Notes under the pieces: model-generated
Databases searched by the model: none
Told to the model about the DNA's origin: nothing
What the model saw: only the letters and a program-made list of their open reading frames with translations
DNA from: Ilumatobacteraceae bacterium
Lineage (GTDB): Bacteria; Actinomycetota; Acidimicrobiia; Acidimicrobiales; Ilumatobacteraceae
Length of the DNA stretch: 31,135 nucleotides
Assembly: GCA_007122945.1 (NCBI GenBank)
Contig: SKSP01000150.1
Location: 1 to 31,135 of the forward strand
Reading direction: 5' to 3'
Shown: positions 5,214 to 18,859 of the stretch, in pieces
Numbering within the stretch: position 1 is the first letter of the stretch
Layout of the letters: every line of letters begins with the position of its first letter
Position numbers and translations under genes: made by a program

Positions 5214-6377
5214 TCAGGCGTCGTCGAGCAGCGATGCCAGCGACTGGGTCGCCTCGATGAACTCCTCGACCATCTCGTAGACCACCTGGGCGGCCTTCTT
5301 CGGGGTGTTCATCGTCCCGACGACCTGGCCGACGAAGTAGTTCGCCAGCTTCTCGGCGCCCGACCCGGGGGTGTGCGCGGCGCGGGCGATGCGGGCCTGG
5401 GCGGCTGCGGTCAGCACGGGTTGCAGCGGCATGCCGAGCGGGTCGGGGGTGTCGGCGCGCTCCCATTCCTCGGTCCACGACGACTTCAGCATGCGGGCGT
5501 GCTTGCCGGTCAGCGAGCGCGACCGGATCGTGTCGGCCGAGGTCGCGCCGAGCATCTTCTGCTTGACGACCGGGTGCGTCTCGGCCTCCTCGGTGGTGAG
5601 CCACACCGACCCGCACCAGACGCCCTGGGCGCCGAGCGCCATCGCCGCGGCCATCTGGCGGCCGCGGCCGATCCCACCGGCGCCGAGCACCGGGACGGGT
5701 GCGACGGCGTCGACGATCTCGGGGATCAGGACCATCGAGCCGATCTCGCCGGTGTGCCCGCCGGCCTCGTATCCCTGGGCGATGATGATGTCGACGCCGG
5801 CCTGGACGTGACGCTCGGCGTGGACGGCCCGACCGGCGAGCGCGCCGATGAGGCGGCCGGCCTCCTTGACCTTCCGGATCATGAAGTCGGGCGGCGGACC
5901 GAGCGCGTTCGCGACGAACACCGGCCGGTGGGCGAGCACGATGTCGAGCTGTGGCCCGGCGGCGGTGGCCGAGAACGGCGCGGCCGTCGAGGTGGTGTTG
6001 ACGGCGCCGACCGAGCGGCGGGCTTCCTCGGACTCGGCGTCGGTCGGGAACTCGGGAACCTCGTAGCGGCGCAGGATGTCCTCGACGAACTCCTGGGCCT
6101 CGGCGGGGATGAGGCGCCGGATGTCGTCCATCGTGTAGCCGCCGTCGGCGTCGCCGGCGTACTTGGCCGGCACGATCAGGTCGACACCGTAGGGACGGTC
6201 GCCGATCTCGTCCTCGATCCAGTCGAGGTCGATCTCGAGCTGCTCGGGCGAGTGGGCGACGGCGCCGAGCACCCCCAACCCGCCGGCCTTCGACACGGCG
6301 GCCACGACGTCGCGGCAGTGGGAGAACGCGAAGATCGGGAACTCGATCCCCAGCATGTCGGTCACGTCGGTGCGCAT
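5214..6377 (-). CDS. nitronate monooxygenase-family FMN-dependent oxidoreductase
   Basis: Start MRTDVTDMLGIEFPIFAF. Motifs 'AAVSKAGGLGVLG', 'AQGYEAGGHTG', 'VPVLGAGGIG' and 'LGAQGVWCGS'. Confidence 0.85.
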   Translation of the reverse strand: MRTDVTDMLGIEFPIFAFSHCRDVVAAVSKAGGLGVLGAVAHSPEQLEIDLDWIEDEIGDRPYGVDLIVPAKYAGDADGGYTMDDIRRLIPAEAQEFVEDILRRYEVPEFPTDAESEEARRSVGAVNTTSTAAPFSATAAGPQLDIVLAHRPVFVANALGPPPDFMIRKVKEAGRLIGALAGRAVHAERHVQAGVDIIIAQGYEAGGHTGEIGSMVLIPEIVDAVAPVPVLGAGGIGRGRQMAAAMALGAQGVWCGSVWLTTEEAETHPVVKQKMLGATSADTIRSRSLTGKHARMLKSSWTEEWERADTPDPLGMPLQPVLTAAAQARIARAAHTPGSGAEKLANYFVGQVVGTMNTPKKAAQVVYEMVEEFIEATQSLASLLDDA

Positions 6378-6492
6378 ACCCGCCAGGCTACCCACCCACC
6401 CCCACGGAGGTTCTGACGATGCTCCCGGGCGCTGGTGTTCGGCCGGTGTGATCGGCCGGTGTTTCGGCGATGTGAACAACGACCGGCCGACA

Positions 6493-6532
6493 TTGTCCGA
6501 GATCATCTGTGCGTTTACTATATGCAAGCAGA
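6493..6532 (+). promoter_or_regulatory. sigma70-type promoter of the ABC operon (TTGTCC-N17-TACTAT) overlapped by a putative MarR operator
   Basis: TTGTCC at 6493-6498 and TACTAT at 6516-6521, 17-nt spacer. 6496-6513 matches the reverse complement of 16697-16714 at 17 of 18 positions. Confidence 0.7.
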
Positions 6533-6557
6533 CGAATTTCGGGGAGGACGACGTCGC

Positions 6558-7373
6558 ATGCTCGTGAGCGAGGAGCCAGGACCGACGGTGGGCACGGGAC
6601 CGCCGATCCCACCGCCCGGCCCGGACGCGTCGGGTGTCACCGTCTCGGTGCGCGGCGTGACCCGACAGTACCGGTCCGGGTTCGTCGCGCTCCAGGGCGC
6701 CGACCTGGAGATCGCGGCCGGGGAGATGGTCGCCCTCGTCGGTCCGTCGGGGTGCGGCAAGTCGACGCTCCTCAAGATCGTCGCCGGACTGCTCTCGGCG
6801 ACCGACGGCGAGGTGGCGTTCGGCGGCCCCGGAGGTCGGCCGGAGATCGGCTACGTGTTCCAGGACCCGCACCTGCTCCCGTGGCGCCGGACGCTCCGCA
6901 ACGTCGAGCTGTTCCTCGAGGTCGACGGCATGAAGAAGGCGGAGCGGCGCCGCCGAGCGCGCGAGGCGCTCGCCCTCGTCGGCCTGGCCGATTTCGAGGA
7001 CGCCTACCCGGCCCAGCTCTCGGGCGGCATGAAGATGCGCGTGAGCCTCGCCCGAACGCTCGCCACGGATCCGCAGCTGATGCTGTTCGACGAGCCGTTC
7101 GCCGCGGTCGACGAGATCACCCGCCACCGTCTCAACAACGACCTGATCCGACTGCAGCGCGAACGTCACGTCACCGGCGTGTTCGTCACCCACTCGATCA
7201 CCGAGTCGGTCTTCCTCGCGGATCGCGTCGCGGTCATGTCACCCAGCCCGGGCCGGATCGTGGACGTCGTCGACGTCCCGTTCGGCGACGAGCGGCCGCC
7301 GTCGTTGCGGACCACGCCCGAGTTCGCCGCCGTCGCCCGGCAGATCGGCGAGATCATGGGGGTCGAGGCGTGA
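6558..7373 (+). CDS. ABC transporter ATP-binding protein, NitT/TauT family
   Basis: GGAGG RBS at 6543-6547 and ATG at 6558. Walker A GPSGCGKS, Q-loop VFQD, signature LSGG, Walker B LMLFDEPF and H-loop VTHS. Confidence 0.95.
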   Translation: MLVSEEPGPTVGTGPPIPPPGPDASGVTVSVRGVTRQYRSGFVALQGADLEIAAGEMVALVGPSGCGKSTLLKIVAGLLSATDGEVAFGGPGGRPEIGYVFQDPHLLPWRRTLRNVELFLEVDGMKKAERRRRAREALALVGLADFEDAYPAQLSGGMKMRVSLARTLATDPQLMLFDEPFAAVDEITRHRLNNDLIRLQRERHVTGVFVTHSITESVFLADRVAVMSPSPGRIVDVVDVPFGDERPPSLRTTPEFAAVARQIGEIMGVEA

Positions 7374-8170
7374 ACCGGGTGCTCGGGGTGGCGCGGGCCG
7401 TGGTGCCGCCGTTGCTCGTCTTCGTCGTGTTGATGTTCGTGTGGTGGGCGGCCGTGCGGGCGCTGCAACCGCAGGCGTACATCTTCCCGTCGCCCGGTCG
7501 GGTGTGGGAGGCCGCCGTCAACGACTCCGACCGGCTGTGGACCGGTTTCCGCAACACGCTCTACGCGTCGGTGGTCGGCTTCCTCGCCGCCACCGCGGTC
7601 GGCGTCCTCGCTGCCCTGCTGCTCAGCCTCTCCCGCACGATCGAGCGGGCCTTCTTCCCGTGGGCGGTGCTGCTGCAGACCGTGCCGGCCGTGGCCGTCG
7701 CCCCGCTGTTCGTGCTGTGGTTCGGCCCCGGCCGCGGCTCGGTGATGCTCGTCGCGTTCACGATCACGCTGTTCCCGATCCTGGCCAACAGCCTCGCCGG
7801 CCTGCGCTCGGCCGACGCCGCGCTGGTCGACCTGATCCGCCTGCGCGGCCGTCGTCCGAACTCGCTGTTCACCTTCACCAAGATCCGCATCCCGAGCTCG
7901 TTGCCGTACCTGTTCACCGGGCTGCGGATCTCGGCCGGCCTCGCCGTGATCGGCGCGATCGTCGGCGAGATCGTCGTCGGCCGGGGCGGCCCGGAAGCCG
8001 GCCTGGGGTACTGGGTCACGTTCGGCACCACCCAGCTCCGGACCGACTTCGTGTTCGCGGCGATCGCGGTCTCCTCCGCGCTCGGCATCACGTTCTTCCT
8101 CGCCGTGTCGGCGATCGGCAACCGGGTCCTGCGCAACTGGCACGACTCGGCCCGCGACGCGGAGACCTGA
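7370..8170 (+). CDS. ABC transporter permease, NitT/TauT family
   Basis: GTGA overlap with the ATPase stop. Multiple hydrophobic segments plus 'QTVPAVAVAPLFVLWFG' and the EAA-like loop followed by 'KIRIPSSLPYLFTGLRIS'. Confidence 0.92.
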   Translation: MNRVLGVARAVVPPLLVFVVLMFVWWAAVRALQPQAYIFPSPGRVWEAAVNDSDRLWTGFRNTLYASVVGFLAATAVGVLAALLLSLSRTIERAFFPWAVLLQTVPAVAVAPLFVLWFGPGRGSVMLVAFTITLFPILANSLAGLRSADAALVDLIRLRGRRPNSLFTFTKIRIPSSLPYLFTGLRISAGLAVIGAIVGEIVVGRGGPEAGLGYWVTFGTTQLRTDFVFAAIAVSSALGITFFLAVSAIGNRVLRNWHDSARDAET

Positions 8171-8246
8171 TCCCCCTACCAGCCCAGTCCAACCACCCAT
8201 GTCCCGGACCATCCGGTCCCACACCACATCCCAGGAGCACGCAGCG

Positions 8247-9395
8247 ATGAACATCCGACGCACCCGACGACGCATCGTCCCCCTCCTCGCCGCGGCCGCC
8301 CTCGTGGTCGCCGCGTGCGGCGGCGACGATGATGCCGCCACCCCGGAGGCTCCCGACGAGCCGGCCGCCGAGCCGACCGACGACGAGCCGACCGACGACG
8401 AGCCGACCGACGACGAGCCGGCCGACGACGAGCCGACCGACGAGGAGCCGGCCGCCGACGAGCCGGCCACGACGGACGCCCCGCCCCCCGCCACCGGCGA
8501 CATGACCGTCCTCGACGAGCTGACCTCGGTGTCGGTGCAGTCGGACTGGTTCCCGTCGACCGACCACGCGGCGCTGTACGCCGCCGACTTCCTCGGGTTC
8601 TTCGCCGAGCGGAACCTCGAGGTCGAGATCCGCGAGGGCGGGCCTGGTATCCGGGCGGCCAACGACGTCGTCACCGGCAACGTCACGTTCGGCATGGCGA
8701 TCCCCGAGAACATCGTGCTCGCCGCGTCGGAAGGCGCCGAGCTGACCACGTTCTTCGCCACCTACCAGGTGTCGCCGATCGGCATCATGGTGCACGCCGA
8801 GTCGGGCATCACCGGCCTCGACGACCTGACCGAGGTGCAGATGTTCCCGGGCCAGGTGTTCTGGGAGGTCCTCAAGGCCGAGAGCGATCTCGAGGTCGAC
8901 GAGATCGCCTACGACGGCTCGCAGGCCGCGTGGCTCGAGAACAAGGAGTGGGGCGTCCAGGCGTTCGCCACGACGAACCCGAACGTGGCGCGCGAGAACG
9001 GCGCCGATCCGGTGATGCTGACCGCCACCGAGCTCGGGTTCCGCTCGTACGCGACCACGATCTTCACCTCCGACGAGTACGTCGAGGAGAACCCCGACGT
9101 GGTCCGGGCGTTCGCCGAGGCGTTGCAGGCCGGCCTCGAGGCGTTCCTCGACGACCCCGACCCGGTGATCGCCTACATCAACGAGGTGTACCCCGACTTC
9201 GAGATCTCCGTCGGCGAGGCCTCGTTCCCGGTGATGGCCGAGCTCGTCGTCAGCGACACGACCGACGAGCTCGGGCTCGGCGCGATGAGCGGAGACGTCT
9301 GGGAGGACGTCGCGAGCCGCATGCTCGCGGCCGACATCATCCGCACCGAGGTCGACGCCGACTCGCTCTGGACGAACGAGTTCCTCGTCGGCTGA
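8247..9395 (+). CDS. ABC substrate-binding lipoprotein, NMT1/THI5-like
   Basis: AGGAG RBS, basic N-region, lipobox VVAA-C and an acidic linker. Then 'QSDWFPSTDHAALYAADFLGFFAERNLEVEIREGG', a ThiY/NMT1-like N-terminal pattern. Confidence 0.85.
   Translation: MNIRRTRRRIVPLLAAAALVVAACGGDDDAATPEAPDEPAAEPTDDEPTDDEPTDDEPADDEPTDEEPAADEPATTDAPPPATGDMTVLDELTSVSVQSDWFPSTDHAALYAADFLGFFAERNLEVEIREGGPGIRAANDVVTGNVTFGMAIPENIVLAASEGAELTTFFATYQVSPIGIMVHAESGITGLDDLTEVQMFPGQVFWEVLKAESDLEVDEIAYDGSQAAWLENKEWGVQAFATTNPNVARENGADPVMLTATELGFRSYATTIFTSDEYVEENPDVVRAFAEALQAGLEAFLDDPDPVIAYINEVYPDFEISVGEASFPVMAELVVSDTTDELGLGAMSGDVWEDVASRMLAADIIRTEVDADSLWTNEFLVG
8370..8459 (+). repeat. in-frame 15-bp tandem repeat (6 units, GAGCCGRCCGMCGAS) encoding an EPTDD-type linker
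   Basis: GAGCCGACCGACGAC x3 followed by three variant units, read directly from the sequence. Confidence 0.9.
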
Positions 9396-9425
9396 CGTCT
9401 GCTGACGTCGACCCACCTGGTCGCG

Positions 9426-9478
9426 CCGGCAGCCGGTGGTCCCGCCCCTGGATCCGGGGTGGGCCACCGGCTTGCCGG
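9426..9478 (+). terminator. long GC-rich stem-loop downstream of the SBP gene (terminator or mRNA-stabilising hairpin)
   Basis: CCGGCA-GCCGGTGG-TCCCGCCCC [TGGATCC] GGGGTGGG-CCACCGGC-T-TGCCGG. There is no U-tract. Confidence 0.6.
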
Positions 9479-9511
9479 ATACAACATGCGCGCTTATGAT
9501 CTGCGGGCAGA
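9472..9511 (+). promoter_or_regulatory. sigma70-type promoter of the Rieske-LLM-deaminase operon (TTGCCG-N17-TATGAT) overlapped by a putative MarR operator
   Basis: TTGCCG at 9472-9477 and TATGAT at 9495-9500, 17-nt spacer. 9478-9511 matches 16671-16704 at 25 of 34 positions by eye. A GAAGGAGG RBS follows. Confidence 0.7.
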
Positions 9512-9535
9512 GGAACGAAGGAGGAAGAATCAGAC

Positions 9536-10627
9536 ATGCTGATCAGTGAGGTCCCGGCGTTCCGCGAGTACTGGTACCCGATCGGTTACAGCGGCGACAT
9601 CGCCGACGAGCCGACACCGTTCAAGATCTTCGGTGAGGAGTACGTCGCCTGGCGCGGTGGCTCCGGTGCGGTGCACGCCGCCCGCGACGAGTGCCCGCAC
9701 CGCCATGCCCGCCTCTCGCAGGGGTGGCTCGCCGACGGCTGCCTGACCTGCCCGTACCACGGGTGGAAGTTCGGCGAGGACGGCCACTGCGTGGAGATCC
9801 CCGCAGCGGATCCCGAGCTGCCGATCCCGCCGCGCGCCCACGTCGACAAGATCCTCGCCGCTGAGCGGTACGGGCTGGTGTGGGTGTGCGTGGGCATGCC
9901 CCGCGCCGGCATCCCCGACCTCGTCGAGGCCGACGACCCCGGCTACACCCTCATCCACGAGATGATGGACGTGTGGACGGCGTCCGCGCCGCGCATCGTC
10001 GACAACGCCCTCGACGTCAGCCACGTCGCCTGGGTGCACCGCAACTCGGTCGGTTCGTCGGCCAACCCCCGTCTCGAGGCCGGCCCGGTCGAGCGCGACG
10101 GGCAGACGTTCCGCTTCTCGGTCACGTTGATCTCCCAGGTCAACGAGCAGCAGAAGCGCAACACCGGCATCACCGCCGACACGACCCGGCGCACCACGCA
10201 CGCCGAGCTCGTGCAGCCGCTCGTGTTCCGGGGCCGGATGGTCTACGAGGAGAACGGGCTCGAGCACGTGCTCTACAAGACGTGCACCCCGATCGATGAC
10301 GAGCACACGCTGTTCTGCCAGTTCATCGCCCGCAACGACGACCCACCGCCCGAGAAGTGGGACAGCATCACCGCCGTCGACCGCCAGGTCCAGGCCGAGG
10401 ACCGGGCGCTGCTCGAGAACGTCAACCCGAACTTCCCGGTCGAGATCTCGACCGAGCTGCACACCAAGGCCGATCGGATGACGCTCGAGTACCGGCGCAT
10501 CCTCGCCGAGCTGGCCGCCGAGGCGCCCGGTGTCGCTCCCGACTCGGCGTGGGCCAAACCGTTCCGACGCGACCCGGTGCGCGATGCGCCGGTGCCGTCC
10601 GGCGCGACGTCCGACGGAGACGCGTGA
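9536..10627 (+). CDS. Rieske non-heme iron oxygenase, VanA/NdmA-like (O- or N-demethylase type)
   Basis: Rieske motif CPHR-x17-CPYH, mononuclear Fe motif DNALDVSHVAWVH, 'ERYGLVWV' and C-terminal 'AEDRALLE...ADRMTLEYRR'. Confidence 0.9.
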   Translation: MLISEVPAFREYWYPIGYSGDIADEPTPFKIFGEEYVAWRGGSGAVHAARDECPHRHARLSQGWLADGCLTCPYHGWKFGEDGHCVEIPAADPELPIPPRAHVDKILAAERYGLVWVCVGMPRAGIPDLVEADDPGYTLIHEMMDVWTASAPRIVDNALDVSHVAWVHRNSVGSSANPRLEAGPVERDGQTFRFSVTLISQVNEQQKRNTGITADTTRRTTHAELVQPLVFRGRMVYEENGLEHVLYKTCTPIDDEHTLFCQFIARNDDPPPEKWDSITAVDRQVQAEDRALLENVNPNFPVEISTELHTKADRMTLEYRRILAELAAEAPGVAPDSAWAKPFRRDPVRDAPVPSGATSDGDA

Positions 10628-10628
10628 C

Positions 10629-11588
10629 GTGAAGATCGGCATCCAGACACCACCGGAGCACACCGACTTCGCCGCGCTCGAAGCGGTGTGGGACGCGATC
10701 GACGAGCTCGGGTTCGCCGCCGCGTTCACGTTCGACCACCTCGTGCCGTTGAACCCCGGCGCCCGCCCGGGTGGGCCCGGCGGCGTCCCCGACGGGCCGC
10801 AGTTCGAGGGGTGGGCGACGCTGTGCGCGCTGGCGGCCCGCACCACCAACGTCCAGGTCGGCACGCTCGTCTCCGGGGTCACCTACCGTCACCCGGCGAT
10901 GCTCGCCAAGATGGCGGTGACCCTCGACCACATCACGCGCGGCCGGGCGATCCTCGGTCTCGGCGCCGCCTGGCACGAGGCGGAGCACCAGATGTACGGC
11001 ATCGACTTCCCGGGCGTCGGCGAGCGGATGGGTCGGCTCGACGAGGCGCTCGAGGTGATCGGCCGGCTCTGCCGCGCCGACCGCGACGACACCGTCGACT
11101 TCGACGGCCGCTACTACCAGCTCCAGGGCGCACCGTTCGACCCCAAGCCGGTGCGCCCCGAGGGGCTCCCGATCCTGGTCGGCGGCAGCGGCCCGCGGCT
11201 GAAGGGCATCGCAACGCGCCATGCCACGATCTTCAACAGCTTCGCCGCACCGTGGGAGTGGCCCGAGGTCAATGCCGACCTCGACGAGCGGCTTACCGCG
11301 GCCGGTCGCGGACCGGGCGACCTCATGCGTACGGCGTTCGTGTTCTGCGAGCTCTCCGGCGATCCCACGGCCGAGGACGCCCTCGTCGCCCACTTCCAGA
11401 AGAACCGTGGCGGCACGGACGAGGAGGTGCGCCGACGGGTCGTCGTCGGCTCGCCCGACCAGATGGCCGCTGTCCTGAACGGCTACGCCGACGCCGGCAT
11501 GGAGATGGCGATCATGAACCTGCGTCCGCCCTACCCCCTCGAGGGGCTGGAGCGCTTCGCGCGCGAGGTGCTCCCCGCCCTTGGGTAG
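10629..11588 (+). CDS. LLM-class oxidoreductase, probably F420-dependent (Rv1855c-like)
   Basis: GTG 1 nt after the Rieske stop. Motifs 'FDHL', 'EGWATLCALAART', 'GTLVSGVTYRHPAMLAKMAVTLDHITRGRAILGLGAAW' and 'PILVGGSG'. The F420 cofactor is inferred from the subfamily. Confidence 0.85.
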   Translation: MKIGIQTPPEHTDFAALEAVWDAIDELGFAAAFTFDHLVPLNPGARPGGPGGVPDGPQFEGWATLCALAARTTNVQVGTLVSGVTYRHPAMLAKMAVTLDHITRGRAILGLGAAWHEAEHQMYGIDFPGVGERMGRLDEALEVIGRLCRADRDDTVDFDGRYYQLQGAPFDPKPVRPEGLPILVGGSGPRLKGIATRHATIFNSFAAPWEWPEVNADLDERLTAAGRGPGDLMRTAFVFCELSGDPTAEDALVAHFQKNRGGTDEEVRRRVVVGSPDQMAAVLNGYADAGMEMAIMNLRPPYPLEGLERFAREVLPALG

Positions 11589-12933
11589 ATCGAAGCTCCC
11601 GGTCGATCTGCTCGTCAGGGGCGGCACCGTCGTCGCCGTCGACGCCGACGACACCGTCGTGCGCGCCGATGTCGCGGTGGCCGACGGCCGCATCGCCGGC
11701 ATCGGCCGGGACCTCGACGTGGAGCCCGAGGTCGTCCTCGATGCCACCGACGCCGCGGTCGTCCCCGGGTTCGTCAACGCCCACATGCACGAGACGCTCG
11801 ACCGGGGCGTGTTCGAGGACCTCCCGTTCGTCGAGTGGCTGGAGGAGTACGCGCTCCCGAAGGACATGGCGTACGAGCCGCGGCACATGCGCGCCGCGGC
11901 GATGCTCAACCAGGCCGAGATGATCGCCGGCGGGACGACGTCGTTCATCGACATCTTCCGCCATCCCCACGAGGTCGCCGCGGTCGCCGAGCGGTCGGGA
12001 CTGCGCGCGACGATCAGCCCCCAGATCGTCGACACGCCCGCAGGCGCGGGCGAGACGGTCGCCGACGCGGTCGGTTTCGTCGAGCACTGGCACCGCCGGA
12101 TCCCCGGCCGGATCCGAGCCTGGTTCGGGCCGCACGCGCTCTACTCGTGCACCCCCGAGACGTACCGCTGCATCCGCGAGCTCACCTGCGTGTACGACGT
12201 CGGCATCCACACCCACCTCGCGGAGAGCCGGGCGGAGGCGGGCATGATCGCCGAGCAGTCCGGTGGGCTCAGCCCGGTTCGATGGCTCGACGAGTTGGTC
12301 GGCCTGGGCTCCGATGTCGTGGCGGCGCACTGCGTCGAGCTGTCCGACGACGATCTCGCCCTGCTCGTCGAGCGCGGGGTCGGCATCGCCCACTGCCCGA
12401 CCTCGAACGCCAAGCTCGGCAACGGCATCGCCCGGATCCCCGAGATGCTCGCCGCGGGTGCCGTCGTCGGGCTCGGGACCGACTCGAACATGACCAACAA
12501 CGACCTCGACATGTTCGAGGAGATGCGACTCGCCGCGCTCGTCCAGAAGCAGCGCACCGGGGATCCGACGGTCCTGCCGAGCGGGCAGGTCCTGCGGATG
12601 GCGACGATGGGCTCGGCGCGGGTGCTGGGCGTCGACCACCGGGTCGGCAGCATCGAGGTCGGCAAGGCGGCCGATCTGGCGGTGGTCGACCTGCGGGGCG
12701 CGCACGCCCGCCCGATCGTCCGGCACGGCCGCACGAACATCGTCGAGCAGCTCGTGTGGGCGTGCTCGGCGCGCGACGTCCGCCACACCGTCGTCGACGG
12801 GCGGGTGCTGATGCAGGACCGGCAGCTGCTCACGCTCGACGTGGAGGAGGTCGTCGAGCTCGCCGACCGCGAGATCGTGGATCTCCTTCGCTCGGCCGGC
12901 GTGCTCGAGAAGCGCTTCGGCCCCGCCACCTGA
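11581..12933 (+). CDS. amidohydrolase-superfamily deaminase, MtaD/Tm0936-like
   Basis: Metal ligands PGFVNAHMH, HTHLAE, AAHCV and GLGTD. Also 'EDLPFVEWL', 'GPHALYSC' and 'HCPTSNAKLGNG'. The TTG start overlaps the upstream stop, so the exact start is uncertain. Confidence 0.88.
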   Translation: MGRSKLPVDLLVRGGTVVAVDADDTVVRADVAVADGRIAGIGRDLDVEPEVVLDATDAAVVPGFVNAHMHETLDRGVFEDLPFVEWLEEYALPKDMAYEPRHMRAAAMLNQAEMIAGGTTSFIDIFRHPHEVAAVAERSGLRATISPQIVDTPAGAGETVADAVGFVEHWHRRIPGRIRAWFGPHALYSCTPETYRCIRELTCVYDVGIHTHLAESRAEAGMIAEQSGGLSPVRWLDELVGLGSDVVAAHCVELSDDDLALLVERGVGIAHCPTSNAKLGNGIARIPEMLAAGAVVGLGTDSNMTNNDLDMFEEMRLAALVQKQRTGDPTVLPSGQVLRMATMGSARVLGVDHRVGSIEVGKAADLAVVDLRGAHARPIVRHGRTNIVEQLVWACSARDVRHTVVDGRVLMQDRQLLTLDVEEVVELADREIVDLLRSAGVLEKRFGPAT

Positions 12934-12980
12934 CGAACCGTCCGCGCCGATCGGCCGGTTCCCGCCGATCGACGCGGACG
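12934..12980. terminator. stem-loop between convergent genes, containing a REP-like 25-bp repeat
   Basis: CGTCCGCG (12939-12946) pairs with CGCGGACG (12973-12980). 12934-12958 is identical to 30821-30845. Confidence 0.6.
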
Positions 12981-13012
12981 AAACGGGACTGGGCAGTGGT
13001 CGCGGGCAGTGG

Positions 13013-15292
13013 TCAGGTGAGCAGGTCGTCCGGGCGGACCGGGACGCGGTGCACCGGTGCGCCGGTCGCGGTCCGGATCGCAGCGGCGATCGCGGCCGTG
13101 GAGGAGAGTGCCGAGGGTTCGCCGACGCCCTTCAGTCCGAACGGCGCGTCGGGGTCGGGTTCCTCGATCAACGCGGCCTCGACCGGCGCGACGTCGGCCG
13201 CCGTGGGGATCAGGTAGTCCGTGAACGTGTTGTTGACGACGTGGCCGTCGCGGGTCTCGAGGTGCTCGTTGAGGGCGAGCCCGATGCCCTGGGTGATCCC
13301 GCCGAGGATCTGCCCGCGCACCTCGCGTGGGTTGAGGGCCCGCCCGACGTCCTGGGCCGTGGCGACCTGGGCGACCCGACACAGCCCGAGCTCGACGTCG
13401 ACGTCGACGATCGCCCGGTGGGCGACGAACATCCACGACACGTGCACGTCACCCTGCCCGGTCGTCGGATCGCCGCGATGGGTCCGCGGCGGCCGGTACT
13501 CGGTGGTGGCGACGATCGGCTCGTCACCGACCAGCTCGTCGAGGCTGATCAGCTCGTCGCCGACGAGCGCGCCGTCGGGGACGAGCTCGACGTCGTCGGG
13601 AGTCACGCCGGCGCGTCCGGCCGCGTCGGTGAGCAGCCGCGCCGCCACCTCGGCGGCCGCCTGACGAACCGCCGCGCCCGACATCCACGTCTGACGACTC
13701 GCCGACGACGAACCCGAGTACCCGGCCTCCGTGGTGGCCGGCTCGACCTCGACCGGCATGCCGCCGAGCGCCGCCGAGGCGATCTGGGCGAGCGCGCTCA
13801 CGATCCCCTGACCGCACTCGGCGGCGGCCGAACGGATGGTCGCGCCGTTGGCGGTGACCGTCACCGTGGCGACCGATCGCTCGGTCACACCCTCCCCGTA
13901 GAGATGGTTCTTCACCCCGAGCGCGAAACCGACGCCACGGCGGACGTGCTCGCCGTCGGTGGTGAGCCCGGTCCCGCCCGGCAGGTCGTAGGGATGGGTC
14001 GGGTCACCGGGCAGGGGTGCCGGTTCCGGCAGGGCGGTGCACCGGTCGATCAGCTCGCGCAGCGGTGCCGAGGGTCCGACCCGCTGGCCCGACGTGGGGA
14101 ACTCGTCGCCGGGTGCGAGGACGTTCCGGCGGCGCAGCTCGATCGGGTCGATCCCGAGCTCGGCCGCCAGGAGATCGACCGTCGACTCGATGCCGAAGCA
14201 GGCCTGGACGGCGCCGAACCCCCGCATCGCCCCGCACACCGGGTTGTTGGTGCGTGCCGCTCGGCCGCGGACCCGGACGACGGGGACGCGATACGGGCCG
14301 GCGGCGAAGTAGCACGCGCTGCCGAGCACCGGCCCGGACGTGCTCGCGTACGCGCCACCGTCGAGCACGATGTCGGCCTCGACGAAGCGGAACGTGCCGT
14401 CGCGGTCGGCGCCCATCCGGTAGCGCAACGTCGCCGGGTGACGCTTGGGATGGGCGAGGAACGACTCGGCGCGCCGGTAGGTGGTCTTCACCGGTCGGCC
14501 CGTGGCCAGGGCGGCGAGCGCGAGGTGGACCTGACAGGTGATGTCCTCCCGTCCGCCGAACGCACCGCCGATCCCGGACATCACGAGGCGGACCTGCTCC
14601 TCCTCGAGGCCGAGCACCGAGGCGATCTGCTCCTGGTCGGTGTGCAGGTCCTGCGTGGCGAGCACGAGCGTGACCCCACCGTCCACGTCCGGCATCGCGA
14701 GGGCGGACTCGGGGCCGAGGAAGGCCTGGTCCTGGCGGCCGGTCGACCACGTGCCCTCGACGATCACGTCGGCCGTCAGTGGCCCGTCGCCGCGCTCGAG
14801 GCACAGCTCGCGGATCACGTTGCCGTCGGGATGCACGCGCTGGCTGTCGGGCGTGAGCGCGAGGTCGGGGTCCGTCAGCGGCTCGAGCGTCTCCCACGTG
14901 ACCTCGACGAGGTCGGCCGCGCGCCAGGCCAGCTCCTGGCTGCGGGCCACCACGAAGGCGACCGGCTCGCCGACGTACCGCGCCACCCCGTCGACGAAGG
15001 GCGGCGCGTCGGCGACGATGTGCCCGGTGCGCGCCCGGGTCGGGACGTCGTCGAGCGTGAGGATCCGCACGACGCCGGGTGTCGACAGTGCCGCCGAGAT
15101 GCCGAGGTGCACGAGTCGGGCGTGTGGGTGCGGGCTGCGGACCGTCGCTCCGAAGAGCATGCCCGCGACCGAGACGTCGTTGGAGAACTCGAACGAGCCG
15201 TCGATCTTGGGTGGGACGTCCGGTCGTGGAACCGACCGACCGATGGGTGACGCACCCGTCGCGGGTGCGTCGACCAGGCTCTCGACGCTCAT
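13013..15292 (-). CDS. xanthine dehydrogenase-family molybdopterin-binding (large) subunit
   Basis: ATGA overlap with the small-subunit stop. Moco motifs GGAFGGRE, AMRGFG, ECGQG and SSSASRQT, plus C-terminal KGVGE carrying the catalytic Glu. Confidence 0.93.
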   Translation of the reverse strand: MSVESLVDAPATGASPIGRSVPRPDVPPKIDGSFEFSNDVSVAGMLFGATVRSPHPHARLVHLGISAALSTPGVVRILTLDDVPTRARTGHIVADAPPFVDGVARYVGEPVAFVVARSQELAWRAADLVEVTWETLEPLTDPDLALTPDSQRVHPDGNVIRELCLERGDGPLTADVIVEGTWSTGRQDQAFLGPESALAMPDVDGGVTLVLATQDLHTDQEQIASVLGLEEEQVRLVMSGIGGAFGGREDITCQVHLALAALATGRPVKTTYRRAESFLAHPKRHPATLRYRMGADRDGTFRFVEADIVLDGGAYASTSGPVLGSACYFAAGPYRVPVVRVRGRAARTNNPVCGAMRGFGAVQACFGIESTVDLLAAELGIDPIELRRRNVLAPGDEFPTSGQRVGPSAPLRELIDRCTALPEPAPLPGDPTHPYDLPGGTGLTTDGEHVRRGVGFALGVKNHLYGEGVTERSVATVTVTANGATIRSAAAECGQGIVSALAQIASAALGGMPVEVEPATTEAGYSGSSSASRQTWMSGAAVRQAAAEVAARLLTDAAGRAGVTPDDVELVPDGALVGDELISLDELVGDEPIVATTEYRPPRTHRGDPTTGQGDVHVSWMFVAHRAIVDVDVELGLCRVAQVATAQDVGRALNPREVRGQILGGITQGIGLALNEHLETRDGHVVNNTFTDYLIPTAADVAPVEAALIEEPDPDAPFGLKGVGEPSALSSTAAIAAAIRTATGAPVHRVPVRPDDLLT

Positions 15293-15786
15293 CCGGTGCG
15301 CTCCCGACCCGACGCATCGCGCCGGGCCTCGTCCACCCGGAGCACCGCAGCGATGATCCCCTCGTAGCCGGTGCAGCGGCAGAGGTTGCCGGCGAGGGAC
15401 TCGCGCACGCCGTGCTCCGTGAGGGGTTCCGGGTCGGCGAGAGCGGCCTCGGCCGCCACGACGATGCCCGGGGTGCAGAACCCGCACTGGACGGCGCCGT
15501 GTTCGGCGAGCGCGTCGGCGAGGTCAGCCCGTACGAAGCTGCGCACCGTGCGGATGACGCTGCCGTGGCAGACGAGAGCGGGGACGAGACACGAGCACTC
15601 CACGCGTCCGTCGATCTCGACCGAGCACGAGCCGCACTCACCCTGCTCGCACGCACCGGTCGTCGCCGTGGCACCGGCGTCGCGCAACGCCCGGAGCAGA
15701 CTGGTCGCCGGTGTCGCCTCCAGGGTGGTGTCCCTCCCGTCGAGCGTGATGGCCACCTCGAGGGCCGACGGCATGGCGTCGCTCAC
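15289..15786 (-). CDS. xanthine dehydrogenase-family 2Fe-2S (small) subunit
   Basis: CEQGECGSC...SC and QCGFCTPG...GNLCRCTGY motifs. Start is GTG 15786 (GTGA overlap) or ATG 15774. Confidence 0.93.
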   Translation of the reverse strand: MSDAMPSALEVAITLDGRDTTLEATPATSLLRALRDAGATATTGACEQGECGSCSVEIDGRVECSCLVPALVCHGSVIRTVRSFVRADLADALAEHGAVQCGFCTPGIVVAAEAALADPEPLTEHGVRESLAGNLCRCTGYEGIIAAVLRVDEARRDASGRERTG

Positions 15787-16649
15787 GCCGCCACCTCCCC
15801 GGCGGTACGCCAGAGTCGGGCGTGCGTCCGGCGGGCGAGGACCCCGAGCGCGTGGCGGCGGTAGGTCGCGCTGGCGCGGGCGTCGTCGATCGGCGACGCG
15901 CCCCGGACGACCTCGGCGGCGAACGCGTCCGCTGCACCGGGGTCGAGCAGGGCGGGCTCCGCGTCGTGGACGCGCCGGACCGTCGGCGCCGCCGAACCGA
16001 TAGCGACCCGCGCGACCCCGCTCGCCGGGTCGAGCCGAGCTGCGATCGAGCACACGCTGATCACCATCGCGTTGCGGGTCCCAACCTTGGCGAAGGCGTC
16101 GAAACCGCCGAGGGCGTGGAGGTGGACCGCGGTGATCAGCTCGTCCGGGCGGCGGACCGTCCGCTTCGGCCCGGTGGCGAACTCCTCGAGCGGGACCCGA
16201 CGCACGCCGTCGCAGGACGCCAGTTCGACGTGCGCGTCGCAGCACAGCAGGGGCGGGACGGCGTCCGCCGCCGGCGACGCCGTGGCGAGGTTGCCGCCGA
16301 GCGTGCCTGCCCGTCGGATCTGCGGGCTCCCGACCGTCCGAGCGGCCGCTGCGAGCGACGGCACCGAGTCGGCGAGCAGCGCCTCGATCTCGGCGAACGT
16401 GATGCCGGCGCCGAGCACCAGCGAGTGCTCGTCGGCGACGATGCGGCCGAGCTCGGCAACCCGCCGTAGCGACAGCCATCCGGCAACGTTGGTGCGACCG
16501 TCGTTCACGCCCACCATGGCGTCGGTTCCCCCGTTCACGACGTAGAGTTCCGGACGCTCGGCCAACAGGATCGTCGCTTCGTGGCGGGTCGTCGGCGTGG
16601 CGAACGGCGGGAGGATGGGCTCGTCCGACGGCGGGGGCATCGAGCTCAT
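15783..16649 (-). CDS. xanthine dehydrogenase-family FAD-binding (medium) subunit
   Basis: Motifs 'NGGTD', 'GSPQIRRAGTLGGNLATASPAAD', 'AKVGTRNAMVIS' and 'SPIDDARASATYRRH'. Confidence 0.92.
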   Translation of the reverse strand: MSSMPPPSDEPILPPFATPTTRHEATILLAERPELYVVNGGTDAMVGVNDGRTNVAGWLSLRRVAELGRIVADEHSLVLGAGITFAEIEALLADSVPSLAAAARTVGSPQIRRAGTLGGNLATASPAADAVPPLLCCDAHVELASCDGVRRVPLEEFATGPKRTVRRPDELITAVHLHALGGFDAFAKVGTRNAMVISVCSIAARLDPASGVARVAIGSAAPTVRRVHDAEPALLDPGAADAFAAEVVRGASPIDDARASATYRRHALGVLARRTHARLWRTAGEVAA

Positions 16650-16670
16650 CGATCGGCATCCGTCCGGGGG

Positions 16671-16714
16671 GATACAATCAGTGCGAACATGATCTGCGCA
16701 CAGATTATCTCGGA
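16671..16714. promoter_or_regulatory. putative MarR operator: two overlapping imperfect palindromes in the divergent XDH/MarR intergenic region
   Basis: ATGATCTG-CGCA-CAGATTAT at 16689-16708. A second related site, ACAATCAGTGCGAACATGAT, lies at 16674-16693 (offset 15 nt). Confidence 0.7.
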
Positions 16715-16769
16715 TCTGATGGATTCGAAAGCGTCGAACGGGTCGAACGGCTCAGAAAGGGGTGGAGTG

Positions 16770-17324
16770 ATGGCACGTCGACCGTCGGAATCCGGTGGCC
16801 GCGAGCTCGGGACGTCGTTCCCGGCGTCCTCCGCGTGGGACAAATTGGGGTTCCTGCTGTGGCACGCCACGCTGGAGTGGCAGCGTCAGGTCTCGGCGGC
16901 GCTCAAGTCGCTCGACCTCACCCACGTGCAGTTCGTCCTGCTGGCGGGCACGAACTGGCTCGAGCAGCGCTCCGGGCCGCCGTCGCAGCGCGAGTTGGCC
17001 GACCACTCCGGGACCGACGCGATGATGACCTCCCAGGTGGTGCGGGCCCTCGAGCGGGCCGGTCTGGTGCGGCGCCTCCCCGACCCCGACGACGCCCGGG
17101 TGAAGCGCGTGTCCACGACGCCCCAGGGTGCCGACCTCGCACGCCGGGCCGTCGCGCTCGTCGAGGACGTCGACCGGCGGGTGTTCGGCGAGGTCGACGA
17201 TCTCGACCGGCTCCGCATCGCCCTGCGGTCCGTCGCCGGGCGCGACGAGTTCGGCCGTCCCTTGGCCGGCACCGCTGACGCGCCAGGGGCTGGTGCCGAA
17301 CGGGCCGGTGCGACTCGAACATGA
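16770..17324 (+). CDS. MarR-family transcriptional regulator
   Basis: 'LDLTHVQFVLL', HTH 'SQRELADHSGTDAMMTSQVVRALERAGLVRR' and wing 'DDARVKRVSTTPQG'. Divergent from the XDH operon. Confidence 0.92.
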   Translation: MARRPSESGGRELGTSFPASSAWDKLGFLLWHATLEWQRQVSAALKSLDLTHVQFVLLAGTNWLEQRSGPPSQRELADHSGTDAMMTSQVVRALERAGLVRRLPDPDDARVKRVSTTPQGADLARRAVALVEDVDRRVFGEVDDLDRLRIALRSVAGRDEFGRPLAGTADAPGAGAERAGATRT

Positions 17325-18322
17325 GTGGTCAGTCGGGACGCCCGGTACCGGTGATCGTGGACACCGACGGCGGTGTCGACGACGCCGCAGCACTGTGGTT
17401 CGCGGCGACCGCACCCGATGTCGAGCTCGTCGCGGTGACGGTCGTGCACGGCAACGTCGACGTCGGCGTCGCGGCGGCCAACGTCTGTCGGGTCCTCGAG
17501 GCGGCGGGGCGTCCGGACGTCCCCGTCGTCGTCGGTGAGCCCGCGCCGCTCGGTCCGGTCCCCGTGCTGCGGCGCGCCGACTTCATCCACGGGACGGACG
17601 GGCTCGGCGAGACGCACCGGCCGCCGGCGGCGTTCGGCCCGACCGGAACGATCGTGGCCGACGCCTGGGCCGGCGCCGTGACCGACCGGCCCGACGAGAT
17701 CACGCTCGTCACGCTCGGGCCGCTCTCGAACCCGGCGTCGGTGTTCCGTCGGGACCCCGACGTGGCCACCGGATTCCGCCGCCTCGTGATCATGGGCGGC
17801 GTCGTCGGTGGGCCGGGCAACGCGCTGCCGCTCGCCGAGGCGAACATCGCCCACGATCCGGTCGCGGCCGAGGAGGTCGTCACGGCGCAGTGGGCGCGAC
17901 CACCGCTGATGGTCGGTCTCGACGTGACCCACCGGGCGACGTTCACCGCCGCCGAGGTGGCCGTGCTCGAGCGCCGGGAGACCCCGGCCGCCCGCTTCCT
18001 CGCCGAACCGCTCGCCTTCTACGGTCGCTCCGCCGGCACGTTCTGCGCCCCGGGGGAGTTCCCGTGCCACGACCTGCTCGCCGTGCTCGCAGCGGTGCGC
18101 GACGTCGTCGATGGACCCGTGCTGCCGCTCGCCGTGCAGACCGCGCCCGGCCCGGCGTGGGGCGCGACCGTGGCGGACCGCCGCGTCCCGTTCTTCGAGC
18201 GCGCCGGCGCCGGCTCCCAGCAGGGGATGCTGGAGGGTTTCGCCCCCTGGCAGATCGCCCTCACCGTCGACCCCCCCACCTTCCGCCATGCGGTTCTGAC
18301 AATGTTCTCGGTCGCTGACTGA
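17321..18322 (+). CDS. nucleoside hydrolase (IUNH family)
   Basis: N-terminal DTDGGVDD Ca-binding motif, 'HGTDGLG', 'LGPLSN', 'IMGG', 'AEANIAHDP', 'VGLDVT' and 'HDLLAV'. ATGA overlap with the marR stop. Confidence 0.92.
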   Translation: MSGQSGRPVPVIVDTDGGVDDAAALWFAATAPDVELVAVTVVHGNVDVGVAAANVCRVLEAAGRPDVPVVVGEPAPLGPVPVLRRADFIHGTDGLGETHRPPAAFGPTGTIVADAWAGAVTDRPDEITLVTLGPLSNPASVFRRDPDVATGFRRLVIMGGVVGGPGNALPLAEANIAHDPVAAEEVVTAQWARPPLMVGLDVTHRATFTAAEVAVLERRETPAARFLAEPLAFYGRSAGTFCAPGEFPCHDLLAVLAAVRDVVDGPVLPLAVQTAPGPAWGATVADRRVPFFERAGAGSQQGMLEGFAPWQIALTVDPPTFRHAVLTMFSVAD

Positions 18323-18398
18323 TCGTTCTCCACCACGGAATCCGACGAAGGGGAGGACACGGATCGAGACGCGCACCCCTTCGTCATGATCGGGGCAC

Positions 18399-18443
18399 CT
18401 GACATCACGACCACTGACATCACGAACACTGACATCCTGAACA
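18399..18443 (+). repeat. three direct 15-bp repeats (CTGACATCACGACCA / CTGACATCACGAACA / CTGACATCCTGAACA) immediately upstream of an RBS
   Basis: Read directly from the sequence, followed by GGAGGA at 18445-18450. Confidence 0.85.
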
Positions 18444-18457
18444 CGGAGGAGCTGGCC

Positions 18458-18859
18458 ATGAAGGTGCTGATCGCGACGAACGAGACCCAGGGCGACCACC
18501 CGGGTGACTACGCCTGGACGGTCGACGGCGAGTTGGTCACCCCGGTGGCGGCGGAGTGCTGCTCGCCGGGGACGTGCGGCTGCGGGCGTGGGTTCCCGGG
18601 CCTCGCCAGCGGCAAGGCCACCACGACGGCGATCGTGGTCGACCGCCCGGAGCTGACCGAGGACGACCTGCGCGACGCCGTCTGGGACTCCCTGGAGCGC
18701 TGCGGCTGGGCCGATCACCTCGACGACGACGAGTTCGGCGAACTGGTCGACGAGCACCTCGACTGCATCGCGGCGGTGTGCGAGAACTTTCCGGTCGGCA
18801 CCGTCGTCAGCCGGTGGGGGAGCAAGGTGTACGCCCGCCCGGCGTCGGCCGCCGCCTGA
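18458..18859 (+). CDS. small conserved-looking actinobacterial hypothetical protein with a C-x(4-5)-CGCGR motif (DUF7715-like, from recall)
   Basis: GGAGGA RBS and ATG at 18458. Sequence 'MKVLIATNETQG...DGELV...ECCSPGTCGCGRGFPGLASGKATTTA'. Confidence 0.65.
   Translation: MKVLIATNETQGDHPGDYAWTVDGELVTPVAAECCSPGTCGCGRGFPGLASGKATTTAIVVDRPELTEDDLRDAVWDSLERCGWADHLDDDEFGELVDEHLDCIAAVCENFPVGTVVSRWGSKVYARPASAAA

Follow-up and report, generated by a model that had tools for sequence, protein, structure and literature searches.

A tandem 20-bp palindrome as the probable operator of a MarR-family repressor in a purine-like catabolic cluster of a soda-lake actinobacterium

In an uncultured soda-lake actinobacterium, represented by a metagenome-assembled genome (MAG), a 20-bp pseudo-palindrome is present as overlapping pairs in the three upstream regions of one catabolic gene cluster, and it is very probably the operator through which the adjacent MarR-family repressor governs the promoters of that cluster. 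The motif ties the ABC importer, the Rieske/LLM/amidohydrolase, the XDH and the marR-nucleosidase operons into one predicted regulon independently of annotation, and thereby joins the cluster's two convergent halves, as an initial annotation made from the DNA letters had proposed. A shared regulon helps to work out what the purine-like pathway degrades, and the motif defines an operator that can be tested and that might serve as a biosensor for the inducer. The picture of how MarR repressors work is unchanged by this ordinary, cleanly documented regulatory switch; what it does show is that, from one actinobacterial class to another, the regulated genes of a MarR subfamily change and its operator stays, the unusual overlapping 15-bp register included.

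Data and methods

The window is the whole stretch of DNA analysed (31,135 nucleotides). A search covering sequencing runs of any kind, not one dedicated to RNA, found it in metagenomic DNA only, from soda or salt lakes. Its own assembly comprises 3.96 Mb with 71% GC, and because it is 88% complete, regulon members elsewhere could be missed. A 20-bp weight matrix trained solely with sites from other genomes was used to scan 3,952,143 positions of this assembly, and a second matrix, built from genomes with single sites, was used for the test of the 15-nt offset. Genomes and contigs are given by our own handles where they must be told apart.

Results

The gene cluster and its regulator

The MarR gene is the only regulator gene of the cluster (Table 1). 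Its product matches PF01047 with 45.4 bits (cut-off 24.6), as well as PF12802 and PF13463, and 20 solved MarR structures match it at E<=1e-3. Hardly any residue varies within the subfamily in the wing or in the recognition helix, GTD(A/V)(M/K)MTSQV, whose conservation parallels that of the motif, and an N-terminal segment, SAW(D/E)(K/R)PGF(L/V)LWHATL, is conserved as well. Nothing relevant on a described operator or a characterised member of this subfamily was found in the literature; SCO7424 is a different MarR, from a MarR-MFS operon, and was set aside.

The best match of the molybdopterin subunit is TIGR03196 (pucD), at 738.5 bits and thus under the cut-off of 783.65; FAD and [2Fe-2S] subunits accompany it. 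This PucD-like XDH large subunit, a Rieske oxygenase near NdmA/NdmB and SxtT, an amidohydrolase similar to nucleoside deaminases, and the exchange of the nucleoside hydrolase for a nucleoside phosphorylase in a relative (G237) together suggest a pathway of purine flavour.

Table 1. Predicted genes and regulatory features of the cluster (window coordinates)
Feature	Position	Strand	Remarks
ABC-operon promoter, predicted, TTGTCC-N17-TACTAT	6493-6521	+	8/12 match, weaker; hexamers 6493-6498 and 6516-6521
Operator C	6502-6536	+	Upstream of ABC importer operon; C1 6502-6521, C2 6517-6536
ABC transporter ATPase	6558-7373	+	
ABC transporter permease	7370-8170	+	GTGA overlap
NMT1/THI5-like substrate-binding protein	8199-9395	+	
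Strong stem-loop	9426-9478	+	After binding-protein gene; divides ABC from Rieske transcription units
Rieske-operon promoter, predicted, TTGCCG-N17-TATGAT	9472-9500	+	9/12 match, 0.0 expected in shuffles; hexamers 9472-9477 and 9495-9500
Operator B	9481-9515	+	Upstream of Rieske-LLM-amidohydrolase operon; B1 9481-9500, B2 9496-9515
Rieske/VanA_C oxygenase	9536-10627	+	Nearest solved relatives SxtDIOX/SxtT and NdmA/NdmB
F420-type luciferase-like oxidoreductase	10629-11588	+	
Amidohydrolase, TRZ/ATZ / nucleoside-deaminase type	11581-12933	+	
XDH-family molybdopterin subunit, PucD-like	13013-15292	-	ATGA overlap with preceding gene
XDH-family [2Fe-2S] subunit	15289-15786	-	GTGA overlap with preceding gene
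XDH-family FAD-binding subunit	15783-16649	-	First gene of XDH operon
Operator A	16674-16708	.	Divergent XDH/MarR region; two overlapping 20-bp sites
A1	16674-16693		Weak, 12.8-16 bits
A2	16689-16708		ATGATCTGCG/CACAGATTAT (slash, dyad centre); 31-35 bits, best site of the genome
XDH-operon promoter, possible, AGATCC-N17-GATCAT	16689-16717	-	Weak match, inferred only
MarR-family regulator, 184 aa	16770-17324	+	Stop overlaps start of next gene (ATGA)
Inosine-uridine-type nucleoside hydrolase	17321-18322	+	228 bits; translationally coupled to MarR
DUF7715 protein	18386-18859	+	Probable last gene of MarR operon

A 20-bp dyad in a tandem register

The three 34-mers that had been noticed upstream of the operons are present exactly as described (at operators A, B and C), with identities of 25/34 between A and B and 21/34 between A and C, to which we add 22/34 between B and C; the match of 6496-6513 to the reverse complement of 16697-16714 is likewise 17/18. 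When whole regions were shuffled, the observed identity was matched in 0/300 (A-B), 3/300 (B-C) and 15/300 (A-C) cases, and the likeness of A to C is therefore marginal on its own. The basic unit is the pseudo-palindrome ATnATnTGCG/CGCAnATnAT, whose best-conserved columns are those of the GC-rich centre, TGCG/CGCA, and the strongest site is the one at 16689-16708 that had been singled out as the best palindrome. Paired palindromes 15 nt apart, also claimed at the outset, occur in all three upstream regions (6502/6517, 9481/9496 and 16674/16689). With the matrix from single-site genomes, a second site is found at exactly -15 in each operator (14.6, 20.8 and 20.5 bits), and within 30 nt on either side no other offset in the three operators scores above 0 bits. 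A generic repeat finder run on the three upstream regions recovered none of the motif copies; its output was limited to GC-rich repeats at 6431-6490, unrelated to the motif, and a stem-loop at 9431-9472. Folding of 9396-9480 gives -59.5 kcal/mol (z -4.9).

Specificity within the genome

The genome-wide scan that the initial annotation had suggested indicates that the motif is not frequent. With the matrix from other genomes, ranks 1-5 of the 3,952,143 positions are 16689, 6502, 6517, 9481 and 9496 (18.0-31.0 bits), the top position outside the cluster reaches 14.9 bits, and the sixth, weaker sub-site, 16674, has rank 13. Six further matches in the same genome (on C420, C534, C377, C471, C206 and C273) were rejected as regulon members: three look coding, a fourth runs across a start codon and the remaining two belong to low-GC contigs, and all score <=16.9 bits, or <=14.9 with a six-site matrix. 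Pattern scans of five whole genomes of relatives returned, at 0-1 mismatch, the cluster and two further places (G295 C1:1135021 and G448 C285:1831), and a reversed control pattern gave no match in the same scans. The G295 site and its counterpart in G459 (2 mismatches) lie 15 nt before a phosphoribosyltransferase-amidohydrolase operon.

Conservation with the MarR subfamily

Orthologous operons in relatives keep the motif upstream: five further Acidimicrobiales genomes (G240, G295, G426, G448 and G459) carry the palindrome before both MarR/XDH and Rieske, and in RYN_34, a short contig, it lies upstream of MarR alone. Site A2, 62 nt before the MarR start, has equivalents upstream of MarR at six orthologous loci, G240 has an orthologue of C2 in front of its ABC ATPase gene, and a variant, CCTAAGCGCGCTTAGG, precedes a Rieske-LLM-phosphorylase-MarR operon in G237 and G316. 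Altogether, eleven other genomes have the palindrome together with a MarR orthologue. Seven further Actinomycetota carry MarR homologues of 48-53% identity in operator-SRPBCC-MarR operons, in which the same type of dyad lies upstream of MarR via the intervening SRPBCC gene. Because the regulated gene differs in these seven, the motif belongs to MarR rather than to the pathway genes. Motif and MarR subfamily thus occur together in 18 genomes of very different gene context, always with the motif in the promoter of the operon that includes the MarR gene or lies opposite it, which supports the assignment of the palindrome to the adjacent regulator.

The tandem arrangement is less general. By matrix score, the 15-nt register is found in three of the seven SRPBCC-linked homologues; four relatives from another Acidimicrobiales family (f47) and RYN_34 have single sites only, and in G240 the second site is vestigial, so that two dimers are not a general requirement.

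Operators and promoters

Both promoters named in the initial annotation have the hexamers and the 17-nt spacer that it gave, and a scan for the sigma-70 consensus confirms the one at 9.5 kb only, the one at 6.5 kb falling below threshold; the -35 hexamers are weak. At the place equivalent to the ABC promoter, G240 has TTGCCG-N18-TACGGT. B1 occupies the spacer of the Rieske promoter, its right arm being the -10 hexamer TATGAT, and B2 spans the -10 and the probable start of transcription; correspondingly, C1 occupies the spacer and the -10 hexamer TACTAT of the ABC promoter, and C2 spans the -10 and the likely start. The same scan found no promoter in the divergent XDH/MarR region. Read in reverse complement, A has 22/34 identities with C and 21/34 with B, and on the minus strand a -10-like GATCAT stands in the same register to operator A as TACTAT does to operator C; copy A thus appears to fit an XDH promoter better on the minus strand.

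Proposed regulation

One MarR dimer would bind each 20-bp pseudo-palindrome, the recognition helices probably reading the TnTGCG arms and the wings touching the AT-rich outer ends. Paired sites overlap by 5 bp in all three control regions, a 15-bp register in which two dimers would probably occupy a stretch of about 35 bp from almost opposite sides of the helix. Two-dimer binding, proposed for each operator at the outset, is plausible for this genome, which with some of the distant homologues is alone in having a strong tandem. At the ABC and Rieske operons the pair covers the promoter from the spacer through the -10 to the start region, so that RNA polymerase should be excluded by bound MarR; for these two promoters there is good support for the predicted repression by occlusion. 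Operator A has the XDH operon on one side and the marR-nucleosidase-DUF7715 operon on the other, a position that would make MarR autoregulatory. Release of the repressor by a small pathway molecule would then turn on jointly uptake, nucleoside cleavage, Rieske/LLM oxidation, deamination and molybdenum hydroxylation. The most likely candidate inducer would be a base or nucleoside of purine type, which may be modified, a guess made from the gene content.

Discussion

The same observations bear on other readings of the motif. The shared sequence might be mere common promoter architecture of three co-evolved promoters to which no repressor binds: the 34-mers begin directly behind -35-like hexamers in the ABC and Rieske regions, relatives retain a -10-like TAnnnT in the right arm of the palindrome, and AT-rich patches, scarce in a genome of 71% GC, tend to be promoters. 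As the right arm doubles as that hexamer, part of the conservation could indeed be promoter conservation. However, dyad symmetry and a TGCG/CGCA centre are not promoter features and yet are what is best conserved, a housekeeping promoter motif would be expected hundreds of times rather than to leave nothing above 14.9 bits outside the cluster, and in distant actinobacteria the palindrome likewise occurs with MarR homologues, there in front of unrelated genes; we regard this reading as very unlikely.

Very unlikely, too, is that the palindrome serves a regulator other than MarR whose gene lies elsewhere, such as a global one for purine or nitrogen metabolism, with MarR acting on something else. 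The f47 relatives do have one further site, at the remote phosphoribosyltransferase operon, as a global regulator might, but sites are very few per genome, conservation of the recognition helix goes hand in hand with that of the motif, and in all 18 genomes the motif keeps to the promoter of the MarR-containing or MarR-facing operon. We consider it very unlikely that MarR binds without being a simple repressor at all three regions, acting for example as an activator or bidirectionally between XDH and MarR. Some MarR proteins, of the SlyA/RovA type, are activators, and no convincing promoter was found in the divergent region; against this, the ABC and Rieske sites lie over spacer, -10 and start, the classic position of a repressor, and the minus-strand register of GATCAT to operator A equals that of TACTAT to operator C. 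Repression by the adjacent MarR thus remains our preferred reading.

Its logic is the same as that of NicR (the nic cluster of Pseudomonas putida) and PicR (the pic cluster of Alcaligenes faecalis), MarR repressors of N-heterocycle clusters with molybdenum hydroxylases, in which palindromic operators lie in several promoters, an XDH-family hydroxylase is accompanied by a transporter, and a pathway intermediate is the inducer. The comparison is one of regulatory logic, and these systems differ in being proteobacterial, in acting on pyridine carboxylates and in their operator sequences. Two dimers per promoter on adjacent or overlapping pseudo-palindromes are known for MepR at mepA and for MarR at sites I and II of marO, which differ from the present operator in sequence and spacing; we know of no description of a 15-bp overlapping register for either.

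The nearest solved homologue is Rv2887 of M. tuberculosis (PDB 5hsm/5hso; E 1.1e-9, residues 25-141, 41.9 bits). This repressor regulates a methyltransferase gene, protects 27 bp overlapping a target promoter and is released by small aromatic ligands; in its crystal a single 30-bp duplex carries two dimers, chains A/B and C/D (PMC5526998). Both are actinobacterial MarR proteins with a promoter-overlapping site, and the two dimers per duplex provide a precedent, whereas the similarity is distant, the methyltransferase target contrasts with the catabolic cluster here, and the Rv2887 site is GC-rich, with a short CGATCG palindrome and indirect readout, in contrast to the clear dyad of 20 bp here, whose ends are AT-rich.

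Urate-responsive MarR proteins such as HucR had been offered as a precedent for sensing a purine ligand, and this holds as analogy only. The UrtR group (HucR, PecS, MftR) comprises urate-responsive repressors with palindromic operators in divergent regions, of consensus T-N2-CT-N8-AG-N2-A (PMC11602129). Its members are further marked by an alpha-0 helix at the N-terminus that bears an invariant Trp, by an Asp/Arg pair in alpha-2 and by a His (W24, D68, R75 and H142 of PecS). Membership of the cluster MarR was rejected on sequence rank and on operator consensus alike: HucR entries (2fbk, 5dd8, 8ylm, 7xl9) match at E 0.07-0.1 and 8ylf/8ylh, listed just as MarR-family or regulatory proteins and probably the PecS/MftR of PMC11602129, at E of about 0.05; these matches are limited to the wHTH (residues 67-142), about 45 other MarR structures score better, and in A2 6 nt separate CT from AG, a pair that is not kept in orthologues.

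A wider reading, which we offer tentatively and as rather less than probable, is that this is an uncharacterised actinobacterial MarR subfamily, usually paired with SRPBCC, whose operator consists of 20-bp dyads in a fixed 15-bp register bound by a dimer of dimers on opposite DNA faces, and which in soda-lake and other Acidimicrobiales may have been recruited to an undescribed import and breakdown of modified (e.g. N-methylated) purine nucleosides, with such a purine as inducer.

MarR homologues at 38-46% identity (L010-L023), some with high matrix scores, were set aside as evidence; two of the high-scoring loci have 36-47% GC, and their scores are therefore inflated by the GC-rich background model. 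An exception among these homologues is G140/G189, at 61-63% GC, with a site of 15.8/15.0 bits 35-50 nt before the MarR start.

Gene cluster and motif copies

The window is an entire contig (C183) of a 3.96-Mb metagenome-assembled genome (571 contigs, 88% complete, 71% GC) whose nearest named relatives are Acidimicrobiales MAGs, and its DNA is present in metagenomes from soda lakes, alkali sediment and salt lakes. Two short contigs of this genome, C206 and C273, are markedly AT-rich by appearance against the 71% GC of the whole and may be binning contaminants. Gene mapping with frame-specific GC3, Pfam and NCBIfam places four operons in the cluster; successive genes have 4-nt start/stop overlaps in three of the four, and a single nucleotide separates the Rieske stop codon from the LLM start in operon 2.

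Features of the cluster and predicted operator sites (window coordinates)
Feature	Position	Strand	Remarks
NMO-type gene, divergent	~5214-6395	-	GC3/Pfam/NCBIfam
Operator C, sites C1, C2	6502-6521, 6517-6536		before ABC operon
Operon 1: ABC ATPase	6558-7373	+
Operon 1: ABC permease	7370-8170	+
Operon 1: NMT1/THI5-like binding protein	8199-9395	+
Strong stem-loop directly 3' of binding-protein gene	9426-9478		fold of 9396-9480: -59.5 kcal/mol, z -4.9
Operator B, sites B1, B2	9481-9500, 9496-9515		before Rieske operon
Operon 2: Rieske/VanA_C oxygenase	9536-10627	+
Operon 2: F420-type LLM	10629-11588	+
Operon 2: TRZ/ATZ-type amidohydrolase	11581-12933	+
Operon 3 (convergent): PucD-like Mo subunit	13013-15292	-
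Operon 3 (convergent): 2Fe-2S subunit	15289-15786	-
Operon 3 (convergent): XDH-family FAD subunit	15783-16649	-
Operator A, sites A1, A2	16674-16693, 16689-16708		divergent XDH/MarR region
Operon 4 (divergent from operon 3): MarR	16770-17324	+
Operon 4: nucleoside hydrolase	17321-18322	+
Operon 4: DUF7715	18386-18859	+

The stem-loop lacks a T-tract and so does not qualify as a classical intrinsic terminator; the Rieske promoter's -35 (TTGCCG) overlaps with its 3' arm. The NMO/ABC divergent region contains GC-rich repeats at 6431-6490 (three copies of a ~21-nt unit, and TCGGCCGGT twice, facing ACCGGCCGA), which are unrelated to the motif described here and may represent the site of a second regulator or a stem-loop.

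The initial annotation had described a ~34-bp motif in three upstream regions as the operator of the adjacent MarR. All three 34-mers are present exactly as described, with 25/34 identities between A and B, 21/34 between A and C, and 22/34 between B and C. In shuffles of the whole regions the observed identity was reached in 0/300 cases for A-B and 3/300 for B-C, both clearly beyond chance, and in 15/300 for A-C, which is marginal, so that similarity within the window is by itself suggestive but not conclusive. The reverse-strand match of 17/18 between C and A was also recovered, and arises because the minus strand of operator A aligns with C (22/34) and B (21/34).

Conservation of a 20-bp dyad in Acidimicrobiales

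Eleven further Acidimicrobiales genomes, belonging to four families, encode orthologues of the MarR at 57-73% identity. The entire cluster is syntenic in G240, the four relatives in another family, f47 (G295, G426, G448 and G459), have MarR <> XDH(S,L) with a convergent Rieske gene, RYN_34 has XDH <> MarR, and G237 and G316 have Rieske-LLM-x-MarR. Common to the orthologue genomes is one 20-bp dyad upstream of MarR, for example ATCATATGCG followed by CACAGACTAT, the counterpart of what had been singled out as the best palindrome (16689-16708). Counted by column across 15 sites, the left half reads A-T-n-A-T-(A/C)-T-G-(C/T)-G and the right C-(G/A)-C-A-(G/T)-A-T-n-A-T. The motif is conserved upstream of other orthologous genes as well, as the dyad also precedes the Rieske gene in G240 and all four f47 genomes, and the ABC ATPase gene in G240. 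In G237 and G316 a variant, the perfect palindrome CCTAAGCGCGCTTAGG, stands immediately upstream of the Rieske gene, and its half-site CGCTTA is identical to the right arm of B1. By position, B1 is orthologous to the lone site at the Rieske promoter of the f47 genomes, where the embedded TAnnnT is kept; from the end of the site to the start codon there are 37 nt in G295 versus 35 nt in the window.

Genome-wide specificity

A symmetric matrix built from six sites, all from other genomes, was scored over 3,952,143 positions of the window's own genome. The motif is not frequent at large: the five best positions are all in the cluster (16689, 31.0 bits; 6502, 21.5; 6517, 18.9; 9481, 18.4; 9496, 18.0), and the best position outside these five scored 14.9 bits. 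Of the lesser hits that were inspected, three are in coding-looking sequence, two are on low-GC contigs and one runs across a start codon.

A degenerate 20-nt pattern was run over the whole genomes of five relatives, tolerating at most 2 mismatches; the reversed pattern, used as a control, gave 0 hits in these genomes. Hits with 0-1 mismatch fell at the cluster and at one further place each in G295 and G448. The extra G448 site is upstream of a 2OG-Fe(II) oxygenase. The one in G295 (C1:1135021; L043:8021-8040) has an orthologous counterpart with 2 mismatches in G459 (C12:306762; L044:7962-7981), and both lie 15 nt ahead of the start codon (ATG) of a gene for a 204-aa phosphoribosyltransferase; an amidohydrolase gene comes next, and smpB is adjacent. 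This operon is a remote, purine-flavoured member of the predicted regulon in f47; the window's own genome, 88% complete, yielded no orthologue of it. A tandem site pair with 15-nt spacing (11.3 and 16.8 bits) is also seen in G486 (L036:914-948), inside the Rieske coding sequence, in its 3' part, and ~340 nt ahead of the MarR gene, and may be an internal promoter/operator or due to chance.

Promoter geometry and tandem sites

Promoter-like hexamer pairs are present at both 6.5 and 9.5 kb: TTGCCG-N17-TATGAT was accepted by the promoter consensus scan (9/12), and TTGTCC-N17-TACTAT, at 8/12, was under its threshold. As had been proposed, the motif copies fill the spacer and -10 of these predicted promoters, the upstream site occupying the 17-nt spacer with its right arm forming the -10 hexamer, and the downstream site spanning the -10 and probable start. 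Aligned on its minus strand, operator A yields a weak XDH-operon promoter, AGATCC-N17-GATCAT, in the same register; the scan found no consensus promoter for the MarR gene.

The reading of each copy as two overlapping sites was examined with a single-site matrix trained only on the f47 genomes and RYN_34. In all three operators of the window this matrix detects a further site (14.6, 20.8 and 20.5 bits) whose offset is exactly -15 nt, all other offsets within +-30 scoring no more than 0 bits, so that the two-site reading is right for this genome. In G240, 15 is again the best other offset at all three operators, at weak scores (1.6-5.4 bits). The arrangement recurs in distant homologues but is not universal, since each operator is a single site in the f47 genomes and in RYN_34. 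As a 15-bp offset corresponds to ~1.4 helical turns, a pair of dimers would be expected on almost opposite faces of the DNA.

Association of the motif with the regulator

In a phylum-wide sample of other Actinomycetota, seven MarR homologues of 48-53% identity were found (L046-L052), with none of the cluster's enzymes near them. All seven share the order operator-RBS-SRPBCC protein (~138 aa)-MarR, in which most SRPBCC proteins start with MWxHEH and Polyketide_cyc2 was confirmed in the two tested; this two-gene operon probably represents the original setting of the MarR subfamily. Their operators are palindromes of the same type (13.0-30.9 bits), and three of the seven (L046, L047 and L050) have, by matrix score, a pair of sites with a spacing of exactly 15 nt. 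All 18 proteins compared have a nearly invariant recognition helix, GTD(A/V)(M/K)MTSQV(V/L)R, and a nearly invariant wing, DPxDxRxKRL. These comparisons indicate that the motif belongs to the MarR and not to the pathway genes, and the joint inheritance of regulator and motif, with target genes that are unrelated, is the strongest in-silico argument for the predicted binding. Related sites (15.8 and 15.0 bits) also occur 35-50 nt before the MarR start in G140 (L012:2049-2083) and G189 (L022:2021-2040), from another Acidimicrobiales family with MarR homologues of only 41-42% identity; G140 has a second site 15 nt upstream of the first.

The window's 184-aa protein is a bona fide MarR by Pfam, and it is not a UrtR. 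Cluster-encoded MarR repressors of N-heterocycle catabolic clusters, such as NicR and PicR, are probably closest in regulatory logic; the literature searched yielded no characterized member of this subfamily. The nearest solved homologue is Rv2887, which protects 27 bp and was crystallized as two dimers on a 30-bp duplex (PMC5526998). HucR, put forward earlier as a precedent for purine sensing, holds as a functional analogy only and not as a relative: HucR entries (E 0.07-0.1) and probable PecS/MftR entries (~0.05) match in the wHTH only and rank behind ~45 other MarR structures, and the UrtR operator consensus T-N2-CT-N8-AG-N2-A (PMC11602129) misfits the window's dyad.

Proposed mechanism and pathway

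In silico, the motif is cluster-specific, conserved and dyad-symmetric; it has been inherited together with the MarR, overlaps two predicted promoters and ties the gene cluster together. The original observation is confirmed, and its interpretation as a MarR operator is supported with qualifications. MarR dimers would bind the dyads, two per operator in the window's genome, and repress all four transcription units, including their own, until released by a pathway compound; the predicted pair of operator and repressor offers a defined means of finding the inducer.

Gene content suggests a purine/nucleoside flavour for the pathway. The large subunit of the XDH resembles PucD, at 738.5 bits, below the cut-off of 783.65; the closest NCBIfam matches of the amidohydrolase are 5'-deoxyadenosine, MTA and guanine-type deaminases, and the Rieske protein is closest to SxtDIOX/SxtT and the methylxanthine demethylases NdmA/NdmB. 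In G237 (L007:584-1408) the gene before MarR in the Rieske-LLM-x-MarR operon is a PNP_UDP_1 nucleoside phosphorylase, replacing the nucleoside hydrolase that follows MarR in the window, a non-homologous swap in which nucleoside cleavage is retained.
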